From contig LBOM01000004.1 of the NCBI GenBank assembly GCA_000989515.1, positions 56,149-120,148 of the forward strand: 64,000 nucleotides of DNA, read 5' to 3'. The notes beneath the pieces are model-generated. The model saw only the letters and a list, made by a program, of their open reading frames with translations. It did not search any database and was not told the origin of the DNA. Both the position numbers and the translations under genes were made by a program. The stretch comes from Candidatus Nomurabacteria bacterium GW2011_GWE1_32_28. Lineage in GTDB: Bacteria; Patescibacteriota; Minisyncoccia; Phycocordibacterales; UBA9973. This document shows positions 3,001-62,360 of the stretch, piece by piece (position 1 is the stretch's first letter; the number at the start of each line of letters is the position of its first letter).

Positions 3001-6000
3001 TAGTATAATCTACAGTAGAATTAAACGGATATGCTCTAGCTAAAGTAATACCAAATGTAGCTGAAGCGACACTTTCAAGATCAGAAGAAGCTGTAGAATT
3101 AAACGCGATAGCAGGAACAGTCAAATCAAAAGTATTTAATATTCCATTTTCAGAATAATCATTTTGACTTGAAACAGGTCCTGATCCAGGATCTTGATTA
3201 TCATGAACCAAAACTCTTATTCCAACATTAGAGTATGAACTTCCGACAAGAGCAGATTCATCATAAATAGTCCATCCTATCGATCCATCTTGTCCAGAAG
3301 ATATTGTACTATTTGTAATAGTAGTAGGTGTCGTTGTATTTGCAATTACCCATACTGGAGTACCAGCAAAGAAAGTAAGATTCTGTCTTGTTGCACGAGG
3401 AGCTATTGGCCATGTACCACGAGTAAGACCAGTCAAAGTATTTCCAGTTTTTCCTGTGTAATATATTACTTCATTATTTACTTGAATATAACCAGATGAT
3501 TGTAATTTTGATGCATCTGATACTGTAAGATTTCCTCCAGAATAAGCATTGGATGGTAAGGTAATTCCAATGTTGTAAAATATACGAGCATCATAAGAAG
3601 GATTAATTTTCTGAGATAAAGAAGCATCTGTTAATCTATAAGTAACAGTAACATCTTTATTAGTTTCTTGAGTAGGAACAACATTTTCTACTTTTGATGC
3701 AGTAGCCACACTTCCACCTCCACCTTCACCATAGTTTTGAACTCCATCTGGTTTTGCTGTAGTATATGCTCCTGCACGAACAGAAGTATTCTCATCAGTT
3801 CCTACTACTCCTAATCTATATCTATAAAATTTTGTTGAATCTAAATTTCTATGAACATAATAATTTGTAACAGGGTTAGACATACCATCTCCAACTGAAG
3901 CATATGATCCATAAGTCACGTTGTCTGTTGAAGTTGCATATTCTAAATTATAAGAAGCAAAACCTGTTGTATCATCTAATGCCTTCCAACCTATATACAT
4001 ATCGTAAGATGGAATAGTAATATTAGATGTATCTTGTACTAGAAATGAAGTTGCGAGAATTGGAGATAATGTAGAAGTTGAAACTTCATCAGTTGTATTT
4101 CCATAAGCATCTCTAAATTGATATTTTAATGTTTTTATTTCTACATCAGAATCAAAAGTCCATGGTATTGTCGTACTACTCGTAATACTTGTCCATCCTG
4201 TTGTCGTAACATCCGCCTCTGAAGCACCATCAGTAATCAAATATTCTATAGCAGAAATATCTGTAGGTATCGGAATAGTGATAATCGCACTATCTACTAC
4301 ACCAGCACTTCCTGCATCAAATGTAATAATTGCAGTAGGTTTTTTTGCGTCAAAAATAAATGCAGAAGAAACGAGTGAACCTATCATAGATCCAGTAGAT
4401 CCATCATTGACTACAACTTTTATTGTTTCAGTTGCATTCTCGTATCCATCTGCGTCTGTTGCTGCTGTCCAAGATATTACTTTTCCTGTACCAATATTTG
4501 ATAATCCAATACCCGTACCTGTTGCGGAAGAAGCATATAAATAAATTGAAGCTCCTGTAGTATGTGCAAATGCTATAGTACTCAATGCTCCTCTTGTAAG
4601 AGTTTGTAGATCATTTTCTGATTTACTTGCATAAGAAATCATTTCATCATCTATCAGAATAGTTCCAGAAGATGGTAAATGTGTCGCATCAGAAACTGTG
4701 AGTGTTGTTGCTCCACTTGTGATAGTTTCATTCAAAGTAGCGTCAACTAAATAATATAAATAGTTTGTAGTTTGAGAAGATTCAACATCCGTGACATCAT
4801 AGCCGACAGTCACCACTCCACTTAATGCCATAGAAGCTGTGATGTTAGAAACTACTGGAGGAGAATTTACAAATTTAAATGAAAGAGCTTGAACAGGACT
4901 TTCTTCGTTAAGAGCGCTATCTATAGATTTAATATGAATTAAATAAATATGATTTATGACTAATGGTACTGTTGAAGAATCAAAACTCCAAGTGTTTGTG
5001 CCTGTAGTAGTGATATATGTTTCTGTAGCATCTGTAAAAGATGTCCCACTATACCATTTGTCTACAGAAACATCAGTATCTTTTATAGAAATTTGAACAG
5101 AATCAATTCCAGATCCACCTACATTGTCTGTTGCGGTTCCTAAAATCGATTGTACACTGTATGTTTCTTGGGGGCTTACAGATTGTCCAGGAGTTGTACA
5201 CCCATTTCCTGCAACACTACAAATTGCTGTGATTGTAGAAGATAAAGGGACAGTATTGTCATAAGTTCTATTTAGTTGTGTTGCTACAGAATTAACATTT
5301 CCTAAAGCATCTGTTGCTACACCTCCTGCTATGTCTACTGACACTGTTCCATCTGCTGTAGGAGTGACTACAAAAGTATATGTTGTACCACTTCCTGCAA
5401 AAGTTCCTGCTGTACCATTTGTAATAGTTATATCTCCTATTACAAAATCTGAAACTGATTCATTAAATGTAGCTGTGACATCTATGTTTCCATTTGTTGG
5501 GTCTGATGTTTCTGAAGTCATAACAACTGTAGGACCAGAAGTATCAATATTAAATGTCGCATTAGTCGGAGCACTAGATGCATTTCCTGCTGTATCTGTA
5601 GTAGCAGAAAGAGAAACTGTAGCTACACCATCTACATATGTACTTCCATCTGTACCACTTCCTGTCATAGCTACATTTGTAATATCTGTAGTTCCAGGTT
5701 GGTTAATAGAAATGTTTGGTGTTGTGGAAGGTGCTTCACTGTATGTAGCTGTGACTGTCATTGCTCCTGCTCCTGCTGGGTCAGAGCTATAGGTTAGAGC
5801 TACTGTTGGACCAACAGAGTCTATTGTAAATGTCGCATTAGTCGGAGCACTAGATGCATTTCCTGCTGTATCTGTAGTAGCAGAAAGAGAAACTGTAGCT
5901 ACACCATCTACATATGTACTTCCATCTGTACCACTTCCTGTCATAGCTACATTTGTAATATCTGTAGTTCCAGTTTGGTTAATAGAAATGTTTGGTGTTG

Positions 6001-9734: not shown

Positions 9735-9763
9735 TTTACTTTTATATAAGTTTGTTTTATAAT
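9735..9763 (+). promoter_or_regulatory. candidate rnpB promoter (-35 TTTACT, 17 nt, -10 TATAAT)
   Basis: tataat at 9758-9763, 5 nt upstream of the RNase P RNA P1 start. Confidence 0.4.
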
Positions 9764-50503: not shown

Positions 50504-52567
50504 TTAAATATCAATCTCAGCGAGTTTTGCATTTGATTGAATAAATGATTTTCGTGGAGGAACTTCAGAGCCCATTAAAATTTCAAATACTTTATTGGCT
50601 TCTTCCGCATCATCTATATTTACCTTCTTTAACACCCTATGACTAGGATCCATTGTAGTCTCCCAAAGTTCTTCAGGGTTCATTTCTCCGAGACCTTTAT
50701 AACGTTGAATGTGAATTTTTTTAGTCTTTGTTTCTTTTTCTTCTTCTTCTTTTTCTTCTTCATTCTCAACATCTGTTTCAACAGTCTGTATTTCATTTAT
50801 ATCTATATCTTTACCAATTAATTTATCTTTCTCTTCGTCAGTATAAGCATAACTAACTTCTTTACCTTTTTTTATTTTATAAAGTGGTGGTTGAGCAATA
50901 TAAACATATCCAGCATCAATAACTTGTCTAAAATATCGATAAAAAAGAGTAAGCAAAAGTGTACGAATATGTGCTCCATCAACATCAGCATCTGTAGCAA
51001 TAATTATTTTATGATAACGCATTTTTGAAAGATCAAAAGTGTCTCCAATAGAAGTACCTAATGCAATGACTAAAGATCTTATCTCTTTTGAAGCAAGCAT
51101 TTTATCAATTCTTGCTCTTTCAACATTTAAAATTTTTCCTTTTAATGGAAGAATAGCTTGTGTACGTCTATCTCTACCTTGTTTTGCTGAACCACCAGCA
51201 GAATCTCCCTCAACTAAAAATAATTCAGATTCTTCTGCACTTTTACTTTGACAATCTGCCAACTTACCAGGAAGTGTCATACCCTCAAGAGCACCTTTTC
51301 GAAGTACAGAATCTTTTGCTGCTTTAGCCGCCTTACGGGCCTTAAGCGCAAGAATAGATTTATTGATTATAGCTTTTGCCTCATCTGGATTCTCTTCTAA
51401 GAAAGCCGCAAAAGCTTCTGCAAATACAGAACTAACAGCACTTTGTGCTTCGACAGAACCTAATTTTGCTTTTGTTTGACCTTCAAATTGAATTTCTTGA
51501 AGTTTTACAGATATTACGCAAGTTAAACCTTCTAATACATCGTCTCCTGTAAAACCCCCCTCAGACTCTTTCATTAATTCATTCTTTTTACAATAAGTAT
51601 TAAGAGTTCTTGTAAGTGCAGTTTTAAAACCAGTGACATGTGTGCCACCTTCTCCTGTGTAAATATTGTTTGCAAAAGGAACAATATGATCAACCATATC
51701 ATCTATATATTGAAGAGCTATCTCTACTCCAACATTATCTAACTCTTTTTCAACATAAAAAATATGACTATGAATTGGTTTTTGAAATCTATTATAATAT
51801 TTTACCAAAGAAGTAAGTCCGCCTTCAAAATAAAAAGAAGTAGATGGCAATTCAAGCTCTAACTCTCTAAAATAAAAAATATCAGAATCATCTATTTTAT
51901 CTTCATATTTACGTGCATCAATAATTAAAATTTTAAGTCCTTTGACTAAATACGCTTGCTGACGAATATGATTCACAACTGTAGTCCAATCAAACTTGAT
52001 ATCTTTAAAGATTTCTATATCTGGTTCAAAAGTAATTATTGTTCCGTTTAATTTAGAAGAGCCATTTTTTTTGACAGCAGTTTTTTTCTTACCTTGAGAA
52101 TATTCCTGAGAATATTTACCGCCATCTTTATGAACTTCCGCTTTACAAAAAACAGAAAGTGCATTAACAACAGAAGCACCGACACCATGCAACCCTCCAG
52201 AAACTTTATAACCTTCACCTCCAAACTTTCCTCCAGCATGAAGTGTCGTCATTACAGTTTCCAATGCTGATACTTTTGTTTTTTTGTGTATATCTACAGG
52301 TATACCTCGCCCGTTGTCTGCAACACGTATGCGATTATTGGGTAATAATACAATTTCAATATCATTACAAAACCCCCCCATGGCTTCATCACGTGAATTA
52401 TCAAAAATCTCCCAAATCAGATGATGGAGACCTTCAGGTCCTGTAGTACCAATATACATACCAGGACGACGTCTTACTGGTTCTAGACCCTCCAAAACCG
52501 AGATATCAGAAGCATCATAATGATGCGCAGCTACTTGTGCTTTTTTTATGTCCTTTTCTTTAGCCAT
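50504..52567 (-). CDS. gyrB: DNA gyrase subunit B
   Basis: GHKL ATPase HAGGKFGGEGYKVSGGLHGVGASVVNALS; TOPRIM EGDSAGGSAKQGRDR; C-terminal acidic insertion. Confidence 0.9.
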   Translation of the reverse strand: MAKEKDIKKAQVAAHHYDASDISVLEGLEPVRRRPGMYIGTTGPEGLHHLIWEIFDNSRDEAMGGFCNDIEIVLLPNNRIRVADNGRGIPVDIHKKTKVSALETVMTTLHAGGKFGGEGYKVSGGLHGVGASVVNALSVFCKAEVHKDGGKYSQEYSQGKKKTAVKKNGSSKLNGTIITFEPDIEIFKDIKFDWTTVVNHIRQQAYLVKGLKILIIDARKYEDKIDDSDIFYFRELELELPSTSFYFEGGLTSLVKYYNRFQKPIHSHIFYVEKELDNVGVEIALQYIDDMVDHIVPFANNIYTGEGGTHVTGFKTALTRTLNTYCKKNELMKESEGGFTGDDVLEGLTCVISVKLQEIQFEGQTKAKLGSVEAQSAVSSVFAEAFAAFLEENPDEAKAIINKSILALKARKAAKAAKDSVLRKGALEGMTLPGKLADCQSKSAEESELFLVEGDSAGGSAKQGRDRRTQAILPLKGKILNVERARIDKMLASKEIRSLVIALGTSIGDTFDLSKMRYHKIIIATDADVDGAHIRTLLLTLFYRYFRQVIDAGYVYIAQPPLYKIKKGKEVSYAYTDEEKDKLIGKDIDINEIQTVETDVENEEEKEEEEKETKTKKIHIQRYKGLGEMNPEELWETTMDPSHRVLKKVNIDDAEEANKVFEILMGSEVPPRKSFIQSNAKLAEIDI

Positions 52568-52697
52568 TTGATATTTAATTTAACTTAAAAAATAAAAGCA
52601 AAAAACAAATTTTGCTTGATATATTATAGCAAAAAGTAACATAAAAAACTAGTTAATTATCGTATCTGCCAACTTGAATTTTTGCTTATATTGTTGC

Positions 52698-53375
52698 TTA
52701 TTTTACCTTTTTCATTATAAAAAGATATTTAAATCCTCTTAGATAGAAATTATATTGTCTTGCTCTTTCGTGCCAAATTCCTGTGTTTGATGTTTGATTA
52801 TGCCGAGTTAAACAAATCATATCAATAGTTTCAAAATATTTTTCTAACCTTTGCCACATTAAAAAACCAACAGGTGTAAATTTCTTTTTAACCCACTGAT
52901 CAGCAATAACCCAACCTACTACTTTACCTTGTTTTAAAACTCTTGCAATTTCACTAGCTGTTTTTTCTAACTCATCATAAAATTCAGTTTTTTCGCAAGA
53001 AATTTTACCAATACATTCTTTATTATCAGAATAATTTATATTATCAGAATAAGGTGAATCAATAAAAACAAAATCAACAGAATTATCTTCAAGTGGAATT
53101 TTACGAGAATCATTTTTTATTATTTCTGGTCTTGTGACATTTATATCATAACCAACAACTCTTCTCTTTAATTCATTTGCAACATCAATAGTCGTTCCAC
53201 TTCCACACATTGGATCAACAACTAAATCCCCTTCTTTTGTATATCGTTGAAGTAAATTCCAAATTACTAATGCTGGAGTAACTCCATTGTATTTGTTATT
53301 TCCATGAGACTTATTGCCATAATTTTGTGTAGGAAAATCCCAAAGCGTTGTTGATTCAATTTTTAAATCATTCAT
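52698..53375 (-). CDS. DNA methyltransferase (N4-cytosine or N6-adenine, gamma-like motif order)
   Basis: motif I VVDPMCGSGTT; motif IV FIDSPY. Confidence 0.75.
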   Translation of the reverse strand: MNDLKIESTTLWDFPTQNYGNKSHGNNKYNGVTPALVIWNLLQRYTKEGDLVVDPMCGSGTTIDVANELKRRVVGYDINVTRPEIIKNDSRKIPLEDNSVDFVFIDSPYSDNINYSDNKECIGKISCEKTEFYDELEKTASEIARVLKQGKVVGWVIADQWVKKKFTPVGFLMWQRLEKYFETIDMICLTRHNQTSNTGIWHERARQYNFYLRGFKYLFIMKKVK

Positions 53376-53378
53376 AGA

Positions 53379-54047
53379 TTACTTTAAAAGTTTTTTTAAA
53401 TCAACAATAAATTTATCAAACATTTTTACTTTATTACTTTCTTCTATATTAGTTTCACTTAAAACATAACTTCCATCAGTATCTGTCTCAACAATCGCTC
53501 TACCTTTCTTTGTTGGTTTTTTAATAGTCAATGTTCCATCTTCGTCAGGGGTTACAAAATAAACTTTTATATGTTTAGTCGCCTCATCAGAAGCAAGTTT
53601 CATTTTCCAATAACCAGTTTGAGCAATTCTCTCTCTTAATGTAACCTTACTCGACAAAACTGCAACAACCTTACTTGTTTTTGGATTATAAATAATCAAA
53701 TCAACATCAGGTAAATGAGAACCAAATTCTCCATAATCAACGATTAAATTTCTTTTTACTAAACTTAATTCTTTTGACAAATTAACACTATTCGTCCGTT
53801 CTAAACTATTACCATTTATAACAATAAGTCCAAGTGCTTGAACTTCATCATTTATAATATGTTCAATTAACTTTTCTAAATTTTTACCCTTAAAAGCACG
53901 CCAAGATTGTTCATGGTCATTACCAACAAAATCTTTACCATGTTGTTCTTTTGCTTCTTTTAATAAATTAGAAATATGCCTATATGTTTCTATTCCATAC
54001 TTTTTCTTTTTTATTTCATAAATTTTTATAAGATCATTTATTGTCAT
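53379..54047 (-). CDS. putative type II restriction endonuclease
   Basis: 222-aa ORF nested between two MTases; possible PD-(D/E)xK elements PDVDLIIY..LSSKVTLRER; no recognisable family. Confidence 0.4.
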   Translation of the reverse strand: MTINDLIKIYEIKKKKYGIETYRHISNLLKEAKEQHGKDFVGNDHEQSWRAFKGKNLEKLIEHIINDEVQALGLIVINGNSLERTNSVNLSKELSLVKRNLIVDYGEFGSHLPDVDLIIYNPKTSKVVAVLSSKVTLRERIAQTGYWKMKLASDEATKHIKVYFVTPDEDGTLTIKKPTKKGRAIVETDTDGSYVLSETNIEESNKVKMFDKFIVDLKKLLK

Positions 54048-54051
54048 AATT

Positions 54052-55323
54052 TTATTTTTCCATTACTAAAATATATTCTGTAGGATAAGCAAAAACCTTA
54101 TTTTTATCGGTTATCCGAGCAAATTTTCCTGTTTTCTCATCTCGAACAGAAGGTAAATTTTTTGATGGTATTTCTCTTTTAATAATATCAACCACTTTTA
54201 ATCCTAAATTTTGTAATTGTTCAACAAAAACTTCTGCATTAAGAATATCAACACCGATTAAACTTGTATTTCCCACAACAATACAAGTTTTACCACCCTT
54301 TTTTAATACTCTTTTCATTTCAACAAAAACTTGATTCATTTCGCTAAAATAAGTTGAAACTTCTTCAGCAGTTTTTTTATGTTTTATTAAAAGATCACTT
54401 CTTATTTTTTCAGCAAGCTTACTATTTAAAACTAAATCTTTTTTACTATGATATGAAGTCCCAATAAATCTTTTACGAAAATCACTTAAATCCTTTGTGT
54501 GTTCCAGCCATAATGCTGTTAATTGATGCAAGTCTGCATATTCATAAGAAGTAACATATGGTGGAGATGTAACAATTAAATCTACACTTCCATTTTTTAC
54601 TGGAATAGTTCTTGCATCTGTACAAACCACCTTACTAGAAATTTTTAAATAACCTTTTTTTGATAATAATTCAAACAGTTCAGCGTTACCACGTAACATC
54701 ATTTTTGTTTGTCTCAAAAATGTTTTAATTGGTTCTGATGGTTCTTTCCCAAAATCTCTTGTTGGTTTATTACTCTTTTGTAGCCAGATTGAACAATTTT
54801 TAAGAATATTTGAAAATCCACAAAAGAAAAAATCTTGAACATCCTGATCTTTAACTTTTATTATTTTAGAAAAAATAAACGCTAACCTCCTTTTTTCTTC
54901 TGCTTTAAACCAATAATCAATTCTTTCATGAGTGGGAACTTTTACTTTTATGTCTTTGTTATATTTTTCTAATTTCTTTTTTAATATTTCAAATTCTTTT
55001 TCAATTTTAATTGGATTTATTGGGGTAATTTTAGCTTTTGTTATCAAGACAGCTACAGGATTAATATCAACCGCTATTGAATATCTTCCCATAATTTTAG
55101 ATTCAATAATAGTTGTGCCACAACCACCAAATGGATCAACTATAAAATCACCCTTCTTTGTATATTTTTCTGCCAAACGAGAAACTATTTGTGGAATAAA
55201 TTTTGCAGGATAACGATGATACCCATGTGTAATGTAAGAAGTTTCTTTTCTTGTTTTATCAGAAAATGACCAAGATTTATCAATTTTTATTTTATTTAAT
55301 ATAGAAATTACAGATTGACTCAT
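54052..55323 (-). CDS. DNA methyltransferase (SPPY motif, alpha-like motif order; possibly N4-cytosine)
   Basis: HGYHRYPAKFIPQ..IVDPFGGCGTT (motifs X-I); IVTSPPY (motif IV). Confidence 0.75.
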   Translation of the reverse strand: MSQSVISILNKIKIDKSWSFSDKTRKETSYITHGYHRYPAKFIPQIVSRLAEKYTKKGDFIVDPFGGCGTTIIESKIMGRYSIAVDINPVAVLITKAKITPINPIKIEKEFEILKKKLEKYNKDIKVKVPTHERIDYWFKAEEKRRLAFIFSKIIKVKDQDVQDFFFCGFSNILKNCSIWLQKSNKPTRDFGKEPSEPIKTFLRQTKMMLRGNAELFELLSKKGYLKISSKVVCTDARTIPVKNGSVDLIVTSPPYVTSYEYADLHQLTALWLEHTKDLSDFRKRFIGTSYHSKKDLVLNSKLAEKIRSDLLIKHKKTAEEVSTYFSEMNQVFVEMKRVLKKGGKTCIVVGNTSLIGVDILNAEVFVEQLQNLGLKVVDIIKREIPSKNLPSVRDEKTGKFARITDKNKVFAYPTEYILVMEK

Positions 55324-55366
55324 TTAGTTATTCTAGCATTTTTTAGTCTTAAAAAGAAACACAAAT

Positions 55367-57145
55367 TTAACGTATCTGCCAACTTGAATTTTTGCTTATA
55401 TTGTTGCTTATTTTAACCATAATTTCTTCTACTTCTTCGGCTTTTAGTGTTCTTTCAAAAGATTGAAAAACAAGCCTAAAAGCATATGATGTTTTCCTAT
55501 CTTTTGTGAAAGAATCAAATAAATAAGGTTCTTTTATTAACAAATCTGTGCCATTTTCTATAAGTATTTGTTTCAACTTATCTCCATTCTCTCCTTCTGG
55601 CATCCATACAGCAACATCACGAGAGATAAATGGATAAACTGACCATGGTTTAAAAGCAGATTTAGACTCATAATTTTTAGTTTCTAATTTAAAATCAGAA
55701 TTAATATCTTTACAAAATTCTTCCAAACTTATTTCTTTTATTTCCTTCTTTTCATTATAAGCAACATGTATTTCCTCTCCATTTTTGTTAAAAATAGTTC
55801 CAATTTCAAAAATCTTTATTTCCTTCATCTCAAGCAATGGTGCATTCAATTGATTTAATTTTAAACTTTCTTTTAATCCATCAGATAAATTTGTTCTTAA
55901 AAAATTCTTATCTGAAGCTGAGGCAAGTACTTCTACTTTTCCTTCATTTCTAAATGAATATGTCATAACTTCACTATATCCATCATTTAAAAGTTTATTT
56001 CTTGCTACAGAAATATTATAAAATTTTTCATTTATCTTAGGGACCCATTCTATTTTAGGCAATTTACCTTCTATTCTTTCATATCCCAAAATTTTAATTA
56101 CATCCTCAACTAAATCATGTTGACCAATTATGTCCATACGCAATAATGGAACTAAAATTTTAAATTCACCATTCTCTTCTTCGTATTCAAAACCAAGTTT
56201 TTCCCAAACACTTTCAATCTCCTCTTTTAAGAAATAAGTGCCTAGTCTTTTATTTATATATTCTACTGATACAAAAACAATATTTTGTTTTAATTTTTTA
56301 GGATAAATATCAACAATCTCCTCCGCATTACCACCAGCTATATCAAGAATCAAATTTGTTATCTTGTCCATGGTCTGAGTGCAAAGCTCTGGAGATATTT
56401 CATTTTCATATCTTTTAACAGCATCAGTCAAAATTCCAATCTTCTTTGAAGCTTTTCTAGTAGAAATAGCATCAAAATTAGCAACTTCTATTATTATATT
56501 CTTTGTATTATTATCTACCTCAGCCTTCATTCCACCTTTTATACCAGCTATAGCTAATATATCTCTCTTGTCTGCGATTACTAAAATAGATTCATCTAAA
56601 TTAATTTCTTTTTTGTCTAAAGTGGTGATTCTCTCCTCAGATTTTCCATTCCGAATAATTATTTCTTCACTCTCTAATTTATCTAGATCAAAACAATGAA
56701 TAGGTTGACCTATATCAAACATCACAAAATTAGCAGCGTCTACAATATTATTTATTGATTTTTGACCTATCGTTTCTAGTCTATTTTTTAACCAAACAGG
56801 ACTTTTATCTATCTTTACATCTTTAACAACTCTACCCATATAACGAAGGCATTTTTCTGACTCAATTTTAATATTTAAATTAGTTGAAGCTGTTTTAAAA
56901 TCCTTGTATTTTTTTTCTTTTAATTTCAAATTAAAAATAGCACTTATTTCTTTTGCTATTCCCCAATGTGAAAGACAATCATGTGCTCTATCTGGTAAAA
57001 CTTTTACATCAAAGACAATATCGTCGCCTATTTTACCTAAACTTTCTACTTCAAAAGAATGAAAAATAATACCCTCAGATAATTTTTCTGGATCTGGTAA
57101 TTTTTCTTCAAAATAATTTTGTAACCAATTATAACTAATTTTCAT
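55367..57145 (-). CDS. pheT: phenylalanyl-tRNA synthetase beta subunit (short form)
   Basis: B3/4 and B5 domains, FDAISTRKASKKIGILTDAVKRYEN, C-terminal catalytic-like domain. Confidence 0.85.
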   Translation of the reverse strand: MKISYNWLQNYFEEKLPDPEKLSEGIIFHSFEVESLGKIGDDIVFDVKVLPDRAHDCLSHWGIAKEISAIFNLKLKEKKYKDFKTASTNLNIKIESEKCLRYMGRVVKDVKIDKSPVWLKNRLETIGQKSINNIVDAANFVMFDIGQPIHCFDLDKLESEEIIIRNGKSEERITTLDKKEINLDESILVIADKRDILAIAGIKGGMKAEVDNNTKNIIIEVANFDAISTRKASKKIGILTDAVKRYENEISPELCTQTMDKITNLILDIAGGNAEEIVDIYPKKLKQNIVFVSVEYINKRLGTYFLKEEIESVWEKLGFEYEEENGEFKILVPLLRMDIIGQHDLVEDVIKILGYERIEGKLPKIEWVPKINEKFYNISVARNKLLNDGYSEVMTYSFRNEGKVEVLASASDKNFLRTNLSDGLKESLKLNQLNAPLLEMKEIKIFEIGTIFNKNGEEIHVAYNEKKEIKEISLEEFCKDINSDFKLETKNYESKSAFKPWSVYPFISRDVAVWMPEGENGDKLKQILIENGTDLLIKEPYLFDSFTKDRKTSYAFRLVFQSFERTLKAEEVEEIMVKISNNISKNSSWQIR

Positions 57146-57147
57146 AT

Positions 57148-57858
57148 CTAAAATTGATTAAACCTTAAATCTCCTTGATAAGCTGGACGAATATCTGGCA
57201 TCCCATATTTAATTACCATAAGTCTCTCAAGACCTGGACCAAATGCAAAACCTTGATATTTTAGAGAATCGATCCCACAATTTTTCAATACATTTGGATG
57301 TACCATACCAGCACCACCCATCTCAAGCCATTTACCATTAAACTTTAAATCAAATTCAATTGAAGGTTCAGTAAAAGGAAAAAAACTGGGACGAAATCGT
57401 AATTCAATCTCTTCACCTAACATTTTTTTATAAAAATAAGAAAGAACTCCCTTTAAATGAGCCATATCTATGTCTTCCCCTATCATAAGTCCTTCGATTT
57501 GATAAAATTGCATTTCATGTGTCGCGTCAGTAGCTTCATTTCTAAAACATTTTCCAGGAGCTATGATTGCAAAAGGTGGATTACCACCAGATTTGACTAA
57601 ATCTTCCATGTATCTAATTTGAACATTTGAAGTATGAGTTCTTAAAACTTTCCCTTTCTCTCCTTTAATATAAAAAGTGTCTTGCATTTCACGAGCTGGA
57701 TGATCTTTAGGAATATTCAATGCATCAAAATTATGCCATATATCTTCTAACTCTGGACCAGTGGCAATTTCAAAACCGAGTTCAGTAAAAATCTTTACTG
57801 CTTCATTTATGATTATTGAAAGTGGATGTTCCCTGCCTTTTTTCTCTTCGTTTTCCAT
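57148..57858 (-). CDS. pheS: phenylalanyl-tRNA synthetase alpha subunit (short form)
   Basis: HPAREMQDTFYI, class II motifs 2 and 3 (FRPSFFPFTEPS, GAGMVHPNVL). Confidence 0.85.
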   Translation of the reverse strand: MENEEKKGREHPLSIIINEAVKIFTELGFEIATGPELEDIWHNFDALNIPKDHPAREMQDTFYIKGEKGKVLRTHTSNVQIRYMEDLVKSGGNPPFAIIAPGKCFRNEATDATHEMQFYQIEGLMIGEDIDMAHLKGVLSYFYKKMLGEEIELRFRPSFFPFTEPSIEFDLKFNGKWLEMGGAGMVHPNVLKNCGIDSLKYQGFAFGPGLERLMVIKYGMPDIRPAYQGDLRFNQF

Positions 57859-58005: not shown

Positions 58006-59499
58006 TTAATCTAATTCATTTAAGTGCTTCCAGATAGCATACATAGCATATGTATCAAGCTTACAATAAGTCTTTAAATGTTGAATCTTTTCCAGCTTCT
58101 CTTCTTTTGAATATACATCACTAACGATTTTATTCCATGTATCTGAAGCAGAAGCACCTTCTTGTATATCAAGAACCTTGTAAGACAACTCTGGAGCAAG
58201 TATAGGCAATATATATTTAATTGATGTTTTGCCTTTAAATTTAGGATGAACAAAATATTGATTAGAAAAAATATCCATAAGATCAATCATCCGAGAATTT
58301 ATATCTTCTAATGCTATTTTATATTCAGGATTTCTTTTGGCTAAATCTTTATTTCTTCCCATCTCAAAACTTTTATTCCAAACAATAATAGACCCACTCT
58401 TAGGTAATTTCTCTATAAGAGCTGAAATAAATTCTTCATCTCCATTTTCGTTTTTAGTAAAAATAAATTCAGAATGTTCTGGCTCTTTATTTTTATCCGA
58501 AAGTACATGTAAAGAAAACTGAAATGTTATTTGATTAAAAGGACTAAAGCCAACAAACCTTGGGACGCCAGCTGCAAAAGTTTCATAATCTAAAAAAGAT
58601 AGTGGCATAACCATAGTATTGAGAAAACTTTTAATCTCTTCTTTTTTTATAAAAATTTTATCCAATTGTGTAGCTAATACCTGATTCCTCTGTTTTTCAC
58701 TTAAAGGAAAATCTTCCGGTACGTCTTCAATAAGAAGAATATTGCTATCAATTAATTCTGTAAGTTTACTTTTTGACATTCCAATACGAGAAATATCATG
58801 GACACTATAATCAGGAACTTGCGGGTTTGAATAAGAAAAAGTCGTACAATGAGAGCTTCTACCTCTCGTAATACATTTACAAGAACCAAATGGTTCTTTA
58901 TTGGAAGATAGAAGATCATAAGCAGTTTTCATTTCTAAAGATACACCATCAACTACATTCATAACTTTTTCTGTAAAATCTTCTTTTAAAAAAAGTTGGT
59001 CTATATCAAGCTCAGCTCCTCTCACATATTGATTATTAAATCTTATAACAAATAATTTACCTAATGGAATATTTAATTCTTTTAAAACTAAATATTGGAA
59101 AGCTATGTCATAACTATAAAGTTTATCTTTAGCACTTTTATCTTCTCCACTATTAGAAGCCTTAACTTCATATAGGTCGTAGACATTAAAGTCTTTATTC
59201 CAAACTAAAATATCACAGATTGTTTTATATAAATCTGTTTCAAATACAGGTTGATATATTACAGGAGTTTTGGATTTTAAAAGCTTTATTGTTTCTTCTG
59301 TCTCATTTCTATCAGAAACCAAAACACCATTTGGAAATAATTCCCTAGCTAACGTATCAACTTCATTACCAGTTTCTATTATACTTTGATCAAATGCAGA
59401 TAAAGGTTTATCAAAATATATGTCTGGTTTATGTACTTTCAACCAAGCATTCTTTTCACAATCTCTATATATAAGATAATCAGTTTTGGTTAATTTCAT
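58006..59499 (-). CDS. DUF2779 family protein (predicted PD-(D/E)xK/Cas4-like nuclease N-terminus)
   Basis: MKLTKTDYLIYRDCEKNAWLKVHKPDIY..GNEVDTLARELFPNGVLV matches the DUF2779 N-terminal signature. Confidence 0.65.
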   Translation of the reverse strand: MKLTKTDYLIYRDCEKNAWLKVHKPDIYFDKPLSAFDQSIIETGNEVDTLARELFPNGVLVSDRNETEETIKLLKSKTPVIYQPVFETDLYKTICDILVWNKDFNVYDLYEVKASNSGEDKSAKDKLYSYDIAFQYLVLKELNIPLGKLFVIRFNNQYVRGAELDIDQLFLKEDFTEKVMNVVDGVSLEMKTAYDLLSSNKEPFGSCKCITRGRSSHCTTFSYSNPQVPDYSVHDISRIGMSKSKLTELIDSNILLIEDVPEDFPLSEKQRNQVLATQLDKIFIKKEEIKSFLNTMVMPLSFLDYETFAAGVPRFVGFSPFNQITFQFSLHVLSDKNKEPEHSEFIFTKNENGDEEFISALIEKLPKSGSIIVWNKSFEMGRNKDLAKRNPEYKIALEDINSRMIDLMDIFSNQYFVHPKFKGKTSIKYILPILAPELSYKVLDIQEGASASDTWNKIVSDVYSKEEKLEKIQHLKTYCKLDTYAMYAIWKHLNELD

Positions 59500-61574: not shown

Positions 61575-61750
61575 TTTTGGCGGTGTTTGCTGGACAAAGT
61601 TCGAAACTATTTCGAGCAGAATCCAGAAGAACAAATCTAATAAATGGGCTCGGCAGGGCGAAACAATATTCTCTGGGTTTCGGATTCGCGGGGTCTGGGG
61701 AGGAATCCGCACGGGTCTGAATTCATTTGGCGGGATTGGGGCGGAACATT
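61575..61750. other. GC-rich, stem-loop-rich ~175-nt element of unknown class (candidate structured ncRNA or degenerate mobile element)
   Basis: ~55% GC island in a ~25% GC intergenic region; hairpins cgaaa-cta-tttcg and cggattc-15 nt-gaatccg; duplicated ggtctgg and ttggcgg motifs. Confidence 0.3.
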
Positions 61751-62360
61751 AATAAAAAATATCTCTATCTTTTGTTAAATTAAAATTTATAGAACTTTGT
61801 TCGTTGAAATTTTCTGCTGGATATATTTCAAAAAATGTCCATTGTTGTATGTTTTCTGTATAAACAGAAAACCATATTCTTTCAAAATACCAACTAAACT
61901 TTTTTATCTCTCTATATAATTCTGATATATTAAAATTTTTTTCAACAATTCTTGAAGCTATCAATAAATGACATTGAGGAAAATTTATAAGTCCTTTTTT
62001 ATCAAAAATATGTTGTGCTAGTTTTTTATAATCAATTTTAGAAGAATTATTTTCATGAAAATATAACTCCATTATCTCAACAGGAAAAGCCTCATTGTTT
62101 TTATTATCTAGAAAATAAACATCTGGAGAATCATCAGGATATAAAGTATATTCTTTACCCAACCATTTTTTAATAGATAATGCTAAAAAACTTGCATGAT
62201 ATAACTCTATTAAATTTTTGTTTTTATGCTTATTTTTAAATACTGCTTCAATATTTCCGTTTTCACTATCAACCGCATTTTGAAATAAATTTCTTACCCC
62301 GATAGGGGTATATGCTTTTGATTTTTCTTTATCAAAATTTGGTAAGTAATGATTATCCAT
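61749..62360 (-). CDS. hypothetical protein
   Basis: 203-aa ORF. Confidence 0.5.
   Translation of the reverse strand: MDNHYLPNFDKEKSKAYTPIGVRNLFQNAVDSENGNIEAVFKNKHKNKNLIELYHASFLALSIKKWLGKEYTLYPDDSPDVYFLDNKNNEAFPVEIMELYFHENNSSKIDYKKLAQHIFDKKGLINFPQCHLLIASRIVEKNFNISELYREIKKFSWYFERIWFSVYTENIQQWTFFEIYPAENFNEQSSINFNLTKDRDIFY

Follow-up and report, generated by a model that had tools for sequence, protein, structure and literature searches.

A compact Type II restriction-modification cassette inserted at the pheT-gyrB junction of a Nomurabacteria genome with duplication of the pheT 3' end

Organization of the pheT-gyrB junction

The DNA analyzed here, referred to as the window, is a 64,000-nt stretch from the uncultivated Candidatus Nomurabacteria bacterium GW2011_GWE1_32_28 (Patescibacteriota; Minisyncoccia; Phycocordibacterales; UBA9973), comprising forward-strand positions 56,149-120,148 of contig LBOM01000004.1 (GCA_000989515.1). 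All coordinates are window positions, with 1 as the first letter of the stretch. Three minus-strand genes, M2, R, and M1, lie between pheT (55367-57145) and gyrB (50504-52567), both also on the minus strand; pheT is the target gene and is still intact, and gyrB is the gene that followed it at the ancestral junction. M2 (54052-55323) encodes a 423-residue and M1 (52698-53375) a 225-residue predicted N4/N6 DNA methyltransferase, based on matches to PF01555 (E = 2e-21 and 6e-24, respectively) and on motif order. R (53379-54047) encodes a 222-residue protein that its Pfam match (PF18643), profile, and structure model assign to the BsaWI (CCGG) family of PD-(D/E)xK Type II restriction endonucleases. 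A 43-nt leader (55324-55366, minus strand) separates the pheT stop codon from the start of M2, and the native pheT-gyrB spacer occupies 52568-52656 on the same strand.

The insert is bounded by a direct repeat. As the first-pass annotation had reported, a 45-mer occurs exactly twice in the window, on the same strand, at 52661-52705 (copy A) and 55371-55415 (copy B), and in a shuffle control none of 100 shuffles contained a match. The repeat can be extended to 49 nt with one mismatch (52657-52705 and 55367-55415, minus strand), the extension consisting of the last base of an Arg codon (CGA vs CGT, synonymous) and a TAA stop codon. The repeat spacing is 2,710 bp and the payload between the copies is 2,665 bp. 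Copy B is the genuine 3' end of functional pheT, as had been proposed, and covers approximately its last 15 codons plus TAA instead of the 12 codons originally assigned to it. Copy A duplicates the pheT end as non-coding sequence and does, as claimed, carry the M1 stop codon (52698-52700); it contributes the final 8 nt of M1, stop codon included. Downstream of the copy A 45-mer come A and TAA, and then the native upstream spacer of gyrB, within which a predicted extended -10 element of gyrB, TGCTATAAT, is found at 52623-52631. An extended -10-like sequence, TGCTAGAAT, lies in the M2 leader at 55330-55338; because it is only ∼7 nt ahead of the ATG, the M2 mRNA is possibly leaderless. This leader is not common to other copies of the cassette.

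Family assignment of the endonuclease

The first-pass annotation placed R in no recognizable family and guessed a PD-(D/E)xK core around PDVD and SSK..RER. The core was guessed correctly, and a family can now be named: R scores 114.8 bits with Pfam RE_BsaWI (PF18643; cut-off 26.2, E = 2.3e-33), and a family profile matches BsaWI (4zsf, E = 4e-7); a single-sequence search from R did not find BsaWI. The structure model of R (pLDDT 96.7), which had been suggested as a check, adopts a PD-(D/E)xK fold, and its top Foldseek matches are PfoI, PspGI, AgeI, and Kpn2I, which together with BsaWI, NgoMIV, and SgrAI belong to the CCGG family of Type IIP/IIF restriction endonucleases (PMC4652773, PMC6344858). 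In a set of 42 homologues, residues E58, D114, K134, and R138-E139-R140 show conservation of 90% or more; E58, D114, and K134 align with E92, D145, and K165 of BsaWI, and R138-E139-R140 aligns with R169-D170-R171 (BsaWI residue assignments from PMC4652773). By profile and predicted fold, R is a BsaWI/CCGG-family Type IIP restriction endonuclease, sharing with that family the RE_BsaWI profile, the modeled PD-(D/E)xK fold, an E...PD...(S)xK active site, and a continuous R-E-R corresponding to the R-(D/E)-R motif with which the family reads CCGG.

R differs from BsaWI in length (222 vs 272 residues) and at two functional positions. The lysine with which BsaWI reads the outer base pair, K85 (PMC4652773), corresponds to A51 in R, and BsaWI D175, its second acidic residue, lacks an aligned acidic counterpart, with T144 at this position. 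R may therefore depart from BsaWI in flanking-base specificity and in its fourth catalytic acid. Judging from its family, R probably cuts a palindromic site with a CCGG or CCNGG core. The 64-kb window contains 14 CCGG sites, with 18-24 expected, and 4 WCCGGW sites, with 3.5-10.7 expected, numbers that are too small for judging site avoidance.

An arrangement typical of Type IIS-like systems had also been proposed for the three genes. Type IIS was taken to require separate recognition and cleavage domains, an asymmetric site, and one methyltransferase per strand; this assignment was rejected, as R is a single catalytic-domain protein of 222 residues from a family with palindromic sites. The presence of two methyltransferases is not by itself diagnostic of Type IIS.

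The two methyltransferases

The motif orders proposed for the methyltransferases are correct. M2 is alpha-like, with motifs X-I (DPFGGCGTT, residues 63-71), a long insert, and motif IV (SPPY, residues 253-256), and M1 is gamma-like, with X-I (DPMCGSGTT, residues 54-62) and IV (DSPY, residues 106-109). Matches of M2 in PDB, NCBIfam, and Pfam are confined to the AdoMet-binding region, and m6A as well as m4C enzymes are among them; the SPPY motif hints at N4-cytosine methylation. Both amino-methyltransferases probably serve to protect the host. The C-terminal VK* of M1 is made by the junction with copy A, and M1 tails past FIM(K/R)K vary between cassette copies.

DpnII (dpnM-dpnA-dpnB) is a Type II system with two methyltransferases. 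The present cassette resembles it in combining one small nuclease with two amino-methyltransferases of different architecture, and differs from it in the M-R-M gene order. By analogy, the second methyltransferase could, speculatively, act on single-stranded DNA that enters a naturally transformable host.

Empty sites and native flanking sequence in relatives

In nine relatives with PheT 39-80% identical to that encoded in the window, gyrB comes immediately after pheT and no cassette gene intervenes (L005, L006/L037, L007, L010-L012, L014, and L038-L040, where L037 is the same contig as L006). The junction sequence was read in the six closest of these (L005-L007 and L038-L040), in all of which the homologue of the 45-mer is present in single copy, with 28-39 of 45 positions matching, and the pheT-gyrB spacer measures 22-115 nt. 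The uninterrupted junction with one copy of the repeat, which the first-pass annotation had named as a check, is thus found in other species. Neither a conspecific nor a near-conspecific empty site was present in the collections searched, the nearest PheT being 80% identical, and for this reason the pre-insertion sequence is deduced from relatives of other species. In the window, sequence past copy A is orthologous to the native spacers of these relatives (TTAACTAG..TGCTATAAT), and copy B is continuous with pheT. Native sequence therefore abuts the outer side of both repeat copies, which identifies an insertion with target duplication that disrupted neither pheT nor the promoter region of gyrB. 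The proposal that the insertion duplicated its target and rebuilt the end of the gene is supported by both the single-copy relatives and the native flanks.

Related cassettes at other loci

Homologues of the endonuclease number 3,967, and the best 120 of these are 85-91% identical to R and come from Nomurabacteria, other Patescibacteria, Gracilibacteria, and Acididesulfobacter. Related cassettes with ∼80% nucleotide identity occupy several unrelated loci in other genomes, and identical endonuclease proteins are found in different gene contexts. Sequence comparison thereby shows the M2-R-M1 cassette to be a horizontally spreading unit. The homology between copies, at 77-82% nucleotide identity, extends only from the M2 ATG (55323) to the region of the M1 stop (52698-52707), and the other cassette loci contain no sequence resembling the 45-mer, none exceeding a background level of 27 matching positions out of 45. 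Since other copies lack the 45-mer and are homologous no further than the M2 ATG on one side and the M1 stop on the other, the repeat is host sequence and not an attP carried by the element. Among the cassette contexts examined, a repeat longer than 30 bp is present only at this locus, and long duplication is consequently not a regular property of the cassette; the variant at L030 (Gracilibacteria), directly after a tRNA-Ser gene, has a repeat of 14 bp. These comparisons depict a single BsaWI-type cassette circulating at ∼80% nucleotide identity among candidate-phyla-radiation lineages and beyond. A stronger reading would make the M2-R-M1 triad a self-contained mobile unit of candidate-phyla-radiation bacteria that is promiscuous to an unusual degree; we regard this as rather doubtful.

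Modules that have been cited beside that reading have conserved 200-420-bp inverted repeats at their boundaries, in some cases adjacent to large serine recombinases. One arm of such a module lies in the window at ∼61577-61775.

Insertion with long target duplication

Insertion of restriction-modification units with long target duplication has been described previously (Nobusato et al., 2000, Gene 259:99; Furuta, Abe & Kobayashi, 2010, NAR 38:2428, PMC2853133). The class is defined by an insert of less than 20 kb containing R and M, a duplication of more than 30 bp for which another genome has one aligned copy at its empty site, and the absence of any other mobile element; the repeats frequently include a stop codon, with preservation of the target gene (PMC2853133). 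The locus described here has every one of these defining features: one PF18643 endonuclease and two PF01555 methyltransferases in 2,665 bp, a duplication of 45/49 nt with single-copy empty sites in other species (L005-L007, L038-L040), and neither a linked mobility gene nor a high-copy repeat, the 45-mer occurring only twice in the window. It also shares with the class a short insert (2.67 kb), a stop-spanning repeat, an intact target, and a methyltransferase gene whose end is remodeled by the junction. It differs from the published examples, as far as the available text describes them, in that their hosts are Proteobacteria, Cyanobacteria, Actinobacteria, and Thermus whereas the present host belongs to the candidate phyla radiation (Patescibacteria), in that the empty sites are from other species (39-80% PheT identity) and not from the same species, and in its M-R-M order with a BsaWI-family enzyme.

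The locus is accordingly a fresh and clean case of a known route of restriction-modification gene movement and not a new kind of element, and it leaves the existing picture of how these systems move unchanged. It is of interest as very clean, minimal, apparently recombinase-free mobility, in which 2.67 kb were inserted with base-resolved junctions, preservation of the target, and remaking of the methyltransferase end, and as an example from Patescibacteria, where the mobility of defense genes is little documented.

The reading that we favor, with good though not full confidence, is that the compact three-gene Type II cassette was inserted at the ancestral pheT-gyrB junction, apparently without a recombinase, duplicating 45-49 bp. 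The insertion duplicated ∼15 terminal pheT codons and the stop codon, leaving pheT with its full frame, gyrB with its own spacer and promoter, and M1 with a frame ending in the second repeat copy. The likeliest sources of the duplication are repair synthesis spanning staggered breaks and illegitimate end-joining of DNA that had entered the cell, in the latter case perhaps by natural transformation. The repeats could later permit RecA-mediated excision or amplification. As a point against this reading, the perfect identity of the 45 nt could also result from recent gene conversion.

Alternative explanations

An identical final structure would result from a Campbell-type event, in which a circular form of the cassette carrying one repeat, excised in a conspecific or close relative by recombination between the repeats, was taken up and entered by single crossover in the pheT 3' end, so that the repeats seen here were inherited from an earlier event elsewhere. 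Such a route fits the life cycle of excision, transfer, and reinsertion that is hypothesized for repeat-flanked units (PMC2853133), and the lone mismatch just past the 45-mer, together with the differing sequences downstream, would fit a crossover boundary. However, this explanation merely shifts the origin of the duplication to another genome, and a donor lineage, a circular form, and a second pheT-linked cassette were looked for and none was found. A 2,725-bp Logan contig resembling a free cassette carries 30 nt of the repeat at either end and results from the k=31 graph breaking there, and the likeness of the M2 leader to native spacers is not significant. We consider a Campbell-type origin unlikely.

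The first-pass annotation interpreted the repeats as the footprint of site-specific, att-like insertion, in which an attP identical to the pheT 3' end recombined with attB through an integrase since lost or acting in trans, the two 45-mers representing attL and attR. The resemblance is real in that integrase-borne islands at the 3' ends of tRNA and protein genes likewise have direct repeats that regenerate the target 3' end; this genome also has a large serine recombinase at a distance of ∼9-10 kb (L001 1-140), and the variant after tRNA-Ser has its 14-bp repeat. Unlike such islands, the 2.67-kb insert has three genes only, no integrase, no conserved attP, and unrelated insertion sites elsewhere. 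As the annotation itself recorded, no integrase is present: Pfam identified no mobility gene in the insert, and the five genes to either side of it likewise include none, the nearest recombinase gene being ∼12 genes away. Moreover, serine recombinases are not known to generate 45-bp duplications. With cassettes at unrelated loci having no 45-mer-like sequence and homology that stops at the ORF ends, the att-like reading is largely refuted, and we regard it as quite improbable. Insertion with target duplication remains our preferred reading.

Chance insertion of the cassette between pre-existing tandem copies of the 49-bp pheT end would correspond to one of the three classes published for repeat-flanked restriction-modification genes, as listed in PMC2853133, but the sequence is single-copy in 6/6 relatives in which the junction was read, and a duplication and an insertion would have had to strike the same few bases independently, making this explanation very improbable.

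Finally, genomes assembled from metagenomes may be chimeric, and this repeat interrupts de Bruijn graphs, but mis-joining of the cassette into the pheT-gyrB junction through a short common sequence is almost certainly not the explanation, since ∼24 conspecific contigs of up to 410 kb have no altered gene neighborhood, an assembly at k=141, a k-mer longer than the repeat, includes the locus, and the 7,355-bp pheS-gyrB stretch is 100% identical between contigs of independent records (GCA_003484005.1 and the ENA k141 assembly ERZ27254731).

Direct repeats bracket the cassette at the pheT-gyrB junction

On the minus strand, pheS (57148-57858) and pheT (55367-57145) are followed by the cassette genes M2 (54052-55323, 423 aa), R (53379-54047, 222 aa), and M1 (52698-53375, 225 aa), and then by gyrB (50504-52567). 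As reported in the first-pass annotation, the window contains two identical copies of the 45-mer CGTATCTGCCAACTTGAATTTTTGCTTATATTGTTGCTTATTTTA (52661-52705 and 55371-55415); they share a strand, there is no third copy, and none of 100 dinucleotide-preserving shuffles contained a match. As delimited by a repeat finder, the repeat is 49 nt long (copy A, 52657-52705; copy B, 55367-55415) with one mismatch, the four extra bases giving CGA-TAA in copy A and CGT-TAA in copy B, which is a synonymous difference. In gene orientation, copy B comprises the final ∼15 codons of pheT (..VKISNNISKNSSWQIR) and then TAA. The M1 coding sequence runs into copy A, from which it takes its stop codon (52698-52700); after copy A come A+TAA and then the spacer upstream of gyrB. 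The GC content of the insert is indistinguishable from that of its flanks, and no differing gene neighbourhood was found in ∼24 contigs with identical PheT, REase, or GyrB. A 2,725-bp Logan contig (L004) considered as a free or circular cassette was rejected as such, since each end consists of exactly 30 nt of repeat sequence, which is what a graph broken at k=31 would leave. Adjoining pheS is a gene for a 497-aa DUF2779 protein (58006-59499) that resembles RNase H-like and HSDR_N domains weakly and is kept in relatives (82% identity in L006).

Between copy B and M2 lies a 43-nt leader (55324-55366) found only in the window's copy of the cassette, with a candidate extended -10-like element, TGCTAGAAT, read directly from the sequence at 55330-55338 and ending ∼7 nt before the M2 ATG. 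Because this leader slightly resembles native spacers, a duplication of ∼92 nt taking in the spacer and the gyrB -10 was considered; it was rejected, its alignment scores being those of shuffles and of other upstream regions in the window (p ∼0.07-0.25). Consensus scans found one strong sigma-70-like site in the 3' end of M1 (52776-52749, 11 of 12 matches), no overall enrichment of promoter-like sites, and no terminator on the minus strand from pheT to gyrB.

Relatives with an uninterrupted junction

The pheT relatives compared came from a scan of one genome per species (17) and from a metagenome scan (four loci). In L005, L006 (the L037 contig), L007, L010-L012, L014, L038, L039, and L040, gyrB comes immediately after pheT and no cassette gene intervenes; the PheT proteins of these empty-site relatives are 39-80% identical to that of the window. 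In the six closest, the junctions of which were read, the spacer measures 22-115 nt and a single homologue of the 45-mer is present (28-39 of 45 matches). The window spacer after copy A (TTAACTAGTTTTTTATGTTACTTTTTGCTATAATATATCAAGCAAAATTTG...) is orthologous to the native spacers of L040, L039, and L006, the orthology taking in the gyrB extended -10, TGCTATAAT, and copy B runs on continuously into pheT. Native DNA thus lies on the outer side of both repeat copies, and the 2,665 bp between them are therefore foreign. The insertion proposed in the first-pass annotation, with the intact junction expected of relatives, is accordingly borne out by their uninterrupted pheT-gyrB junctions and by the occurrence of the homologue only once in the six that were read. 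A closer empty site was not found: exact PheT and GyrB look-ups, a conserved 22-mer used to scan metagenomes, and a search for PheT homologues returned nothing between 100% and 80% identity, the next-best PheT among 5.8 billion proteins being 80% identical.

The pheT-gyrB junction is variable in this clade, with 0.75-5.3 kb of other DNA in L008 (9896-12414), L017, L018, and L021; in L008, the only one of these whose ORFs were read, this DNA consists of ordinary genes encoding a secreted repeat protein, a membrane protein, and a thioredoxin-like protein. The idea that the junction is a general insertion hotspot was rejected; flanking repeats are absent from all four. Within the gyrB 5' leader (52585-52620, minus strand), 3' of the -10, a stem-loop with a T-run (AAGCAAAA-TTTGTT-TTTTGCTT-TTATTTTTT) is conserved in L006 and L039; placed after the promoter and ahead of the gyrB start, it resembles an intrinsic terminator or attenuator.

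The cassette at other loci

Among 3,967 homologues of the REase, the best 120 are 85-91% identical to it and are hosted by Nomurabacteria, other Patescibacteria, Gracilibacteria, Candidatus Acididesulfobacter, and unnamed bacteria. Ten homologues that were looked up belong to the same M2-R-M1 triad at unrelated loci, and the triad is kept at every place where the cassette was seen. It stands between EamA and ABC transporter genes in L023, between AhpC and pyrophosphatase in L026, between MurJ and LepA in L048, and after tRNA-Ser in L030; in L032-L036, L044-L046, L051-L052, L054-L055, and L057 a small HTH gene precedes it, and the triad is followed by variable cargo where the contig reaches that far. 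The window cassette and the other copies are 77-82% identical in nucleotide sequence from the M2 ATG (55323) to the M1 stop region (52698-52707), and their flanks are unrelated. The M1 proteins agree as far as FIM(K/R)K and then end in short differing tails, that of the window, VK*, being encoded by one G and the first 8 nt of copy A. Direct repeats of at least 30 bp were not found round the other copies, the only short ones being a 14-bp repeat at the tRNA-Ser of L030 and a weak, AT-only 11-nt repeat in L048, and searches of plasmid, phage, and viral collections for the cassette returned no matches.

The 14-bp repeat of L030, a Gracilibacteria locus (4482-4577, 9746-9759), is CCGCCAAAATATAT; it includes the final 6 nt of tRNA-Ser(TGA) and lies on both sides of a variant cassette of ∼5.2 kb, M2-R-Z1/ResIII-152aa-M1, directly after the tRNA gene. 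A terminator-like hairpin follows each copy, and there is no integrase between them. A Z1/ResIII-domain gene (570-621 aa) and a small ORF (147-164 aa) are present between R and M1 in L022-L025, L030-L031, and L050-L053, which suggests that a second defence function has been acquired by modular accretion. Sequence-identical REases (P0017, P0020, P0023) occur in different gene neighbourhoods, an indication that the cassette has moved very recently. The gene for P0020, for instance, follows NUDIX genes in L055 and L057 and two unannotated minus-strand ORFs in L054; in L056 a gene for an IS200-type Y1 transposase is located ∼0.4 kb past the downstream end of M1.

Origin of the duplication

The insert lacks a recombinase, and 45-49 bp of host DNA are present in duplicate, once at each of its junctions. 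Furuta, Abe, and Kobayashi (PMC2853133) characterise insertion with long target duplication by four defining features: R and M genes in the insert, an insert of <20 kb, a duplication of >30 bp, and no other mobile element. All four are found here, and the window locus is a textbook-quality long-target-duplication insertion of a Type IIP restriction-modification unit, in which only the host (Patescibacteria) and the enzyme family (BsaWI-type, M-R-M) are new. According to the same authors, such repeats often cover a start or stop codon, so that the target gene survives, the junction may give an M gene a new end or form, the phenomenon is ascribed to a common property of restriction systems, such as double-strand breakage, and the flanking repeats are hypothesised to permit later amplification and release. 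The duplication may have arisen through repair synthesis across staggered breaks or through illegitimate joining of incoming DNA, and selection would then have kept the one outcome in which pheT and the gyrB promoter are both intact.

Campbell-type re-integration of a circle excised from a conspecific would yield an identical structure; it is less favoured than long target duplication, and shifts the origin of the duplication elsewhere. Site-specific integration at an att-like sequence, as first proposed, also ranks lower and is contradicted by the comparison of loci: the other cassette loci are unrelated and have no 45-mer-like sequence (the best match, 27 of 45, is at background level), and no integrase or transposase domain was found in the insert, which together indicate that the repeat is a duplicated target and not an att site borne by the element. 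Insertion between pre-existing repeats is contradicted by the single 45-mer homologue in the six relatives' junctions. Nor is the structure a product of misassembly: the 7,355 bp from pheS to gyrB are 100% identical between contigs of two independent records (GCA_003484005.1 and an ENA k141 assembly).

The endonuclease and the methyltransferases

The 222-aa R protein, initially taken to have no recognisable family, matches Pfam RE_BsaWI (PF18643) with E=2.3e-33. A single-sequence phmmer search of the PDB with R gave only noise, and a profile of 42 diverse R homologues was needed to reach BsaWI (4zsf, E=4e-7). The AlphaFold model from this 42-homologue alignment has a pLDDT of 96.7, and its best Foldseek matches in the PDB, namely PfoI (E=3e-6), PspGI, AgeI, and Kpn2I, with SgrAI lower down, are all CCGG-family Type IIP enzymes, so that the earlier description of the system as type IIS-like does not hold. 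The active site of BsaWI consists of E92, D145, K165, and D175, and its CCGG-reading motif is R169-D170-R171 (PMC4652773). The R residues aligned to E92, D145, K165, and R169-D170-R171 are E58, D114, K134, and R138-E139-R140, each at least 90% conserved in the R family. In contrast, K85 of BsaWI, which reads the outer base pair, is replaced by A51, and D175 has no acidic counterpart, its position being occupied by T144. From these correspondences the core specificity of R is probably CCGG or CCNGG, and the flanking bases that it reads may differ from W/CCGGW. Counts of CCGG-family sites in the 64-kb window are too small to reveal avoidance.

Both M2 and M1 are PF01555 N4/N6 amino-methyltransferases, M2 having an alpha-like order (motif I at residues 63-71, SPPY at 253-256) and M1 a gamma-like order (motif I at residues 54-62, DSPY at 106-109). 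Their PDB and NCBIfam matches cover the AdoMet-binding region only, with m6A as well as m4C enzymes among them.

Modules bounded by long inverted repeats

Long inverted repeats that are almost perfect enclose the HTH-led cassettes (HTH-M2-R-M1 with variable cargo, for example a SEFIR/TIR protein of 482 aa), as in L044 (95-518 and 4896-5319; 424 nt, 99%) and L035 (184-417 and 4043-4276; 234 nt, 100%), and further in L032, L033, L034, L036, L043, L045, and L046. Arms from different contigs are homologous to one another (85-94%) and include a CGAAGTTTTGGCAAA hairpin; they match no Rfam family. An arm adjoins a large serine recombinase gene in L034; in L050 such a gene lies beside the cassette, and an inverted repeat of at least 30 nt was not found there. 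One possibility, as yet only glimpsed, is that the triad, which is highly promiscuous, moves together with modules of an undescribed class bounded by long inverted repeats.

The window's own genome contains a related module, with one arm at ∼61577-61775 and its partner past the window end, at 275-473 of L001, a contig of the same genome. The arms in L001 have a 25-nt core in common with arms round restriction-modification modules elsewhere; the exact 25-mer is absent from the window, whose arm copy differs from L001 by indels. The L001 arms are 199 nt long and 97% identical, enclose an HTH gene and four ORFs, including one for a PsbP-like protein of 386 aa, and the module adjoins a gene for a 516-aa large serine recombinase.
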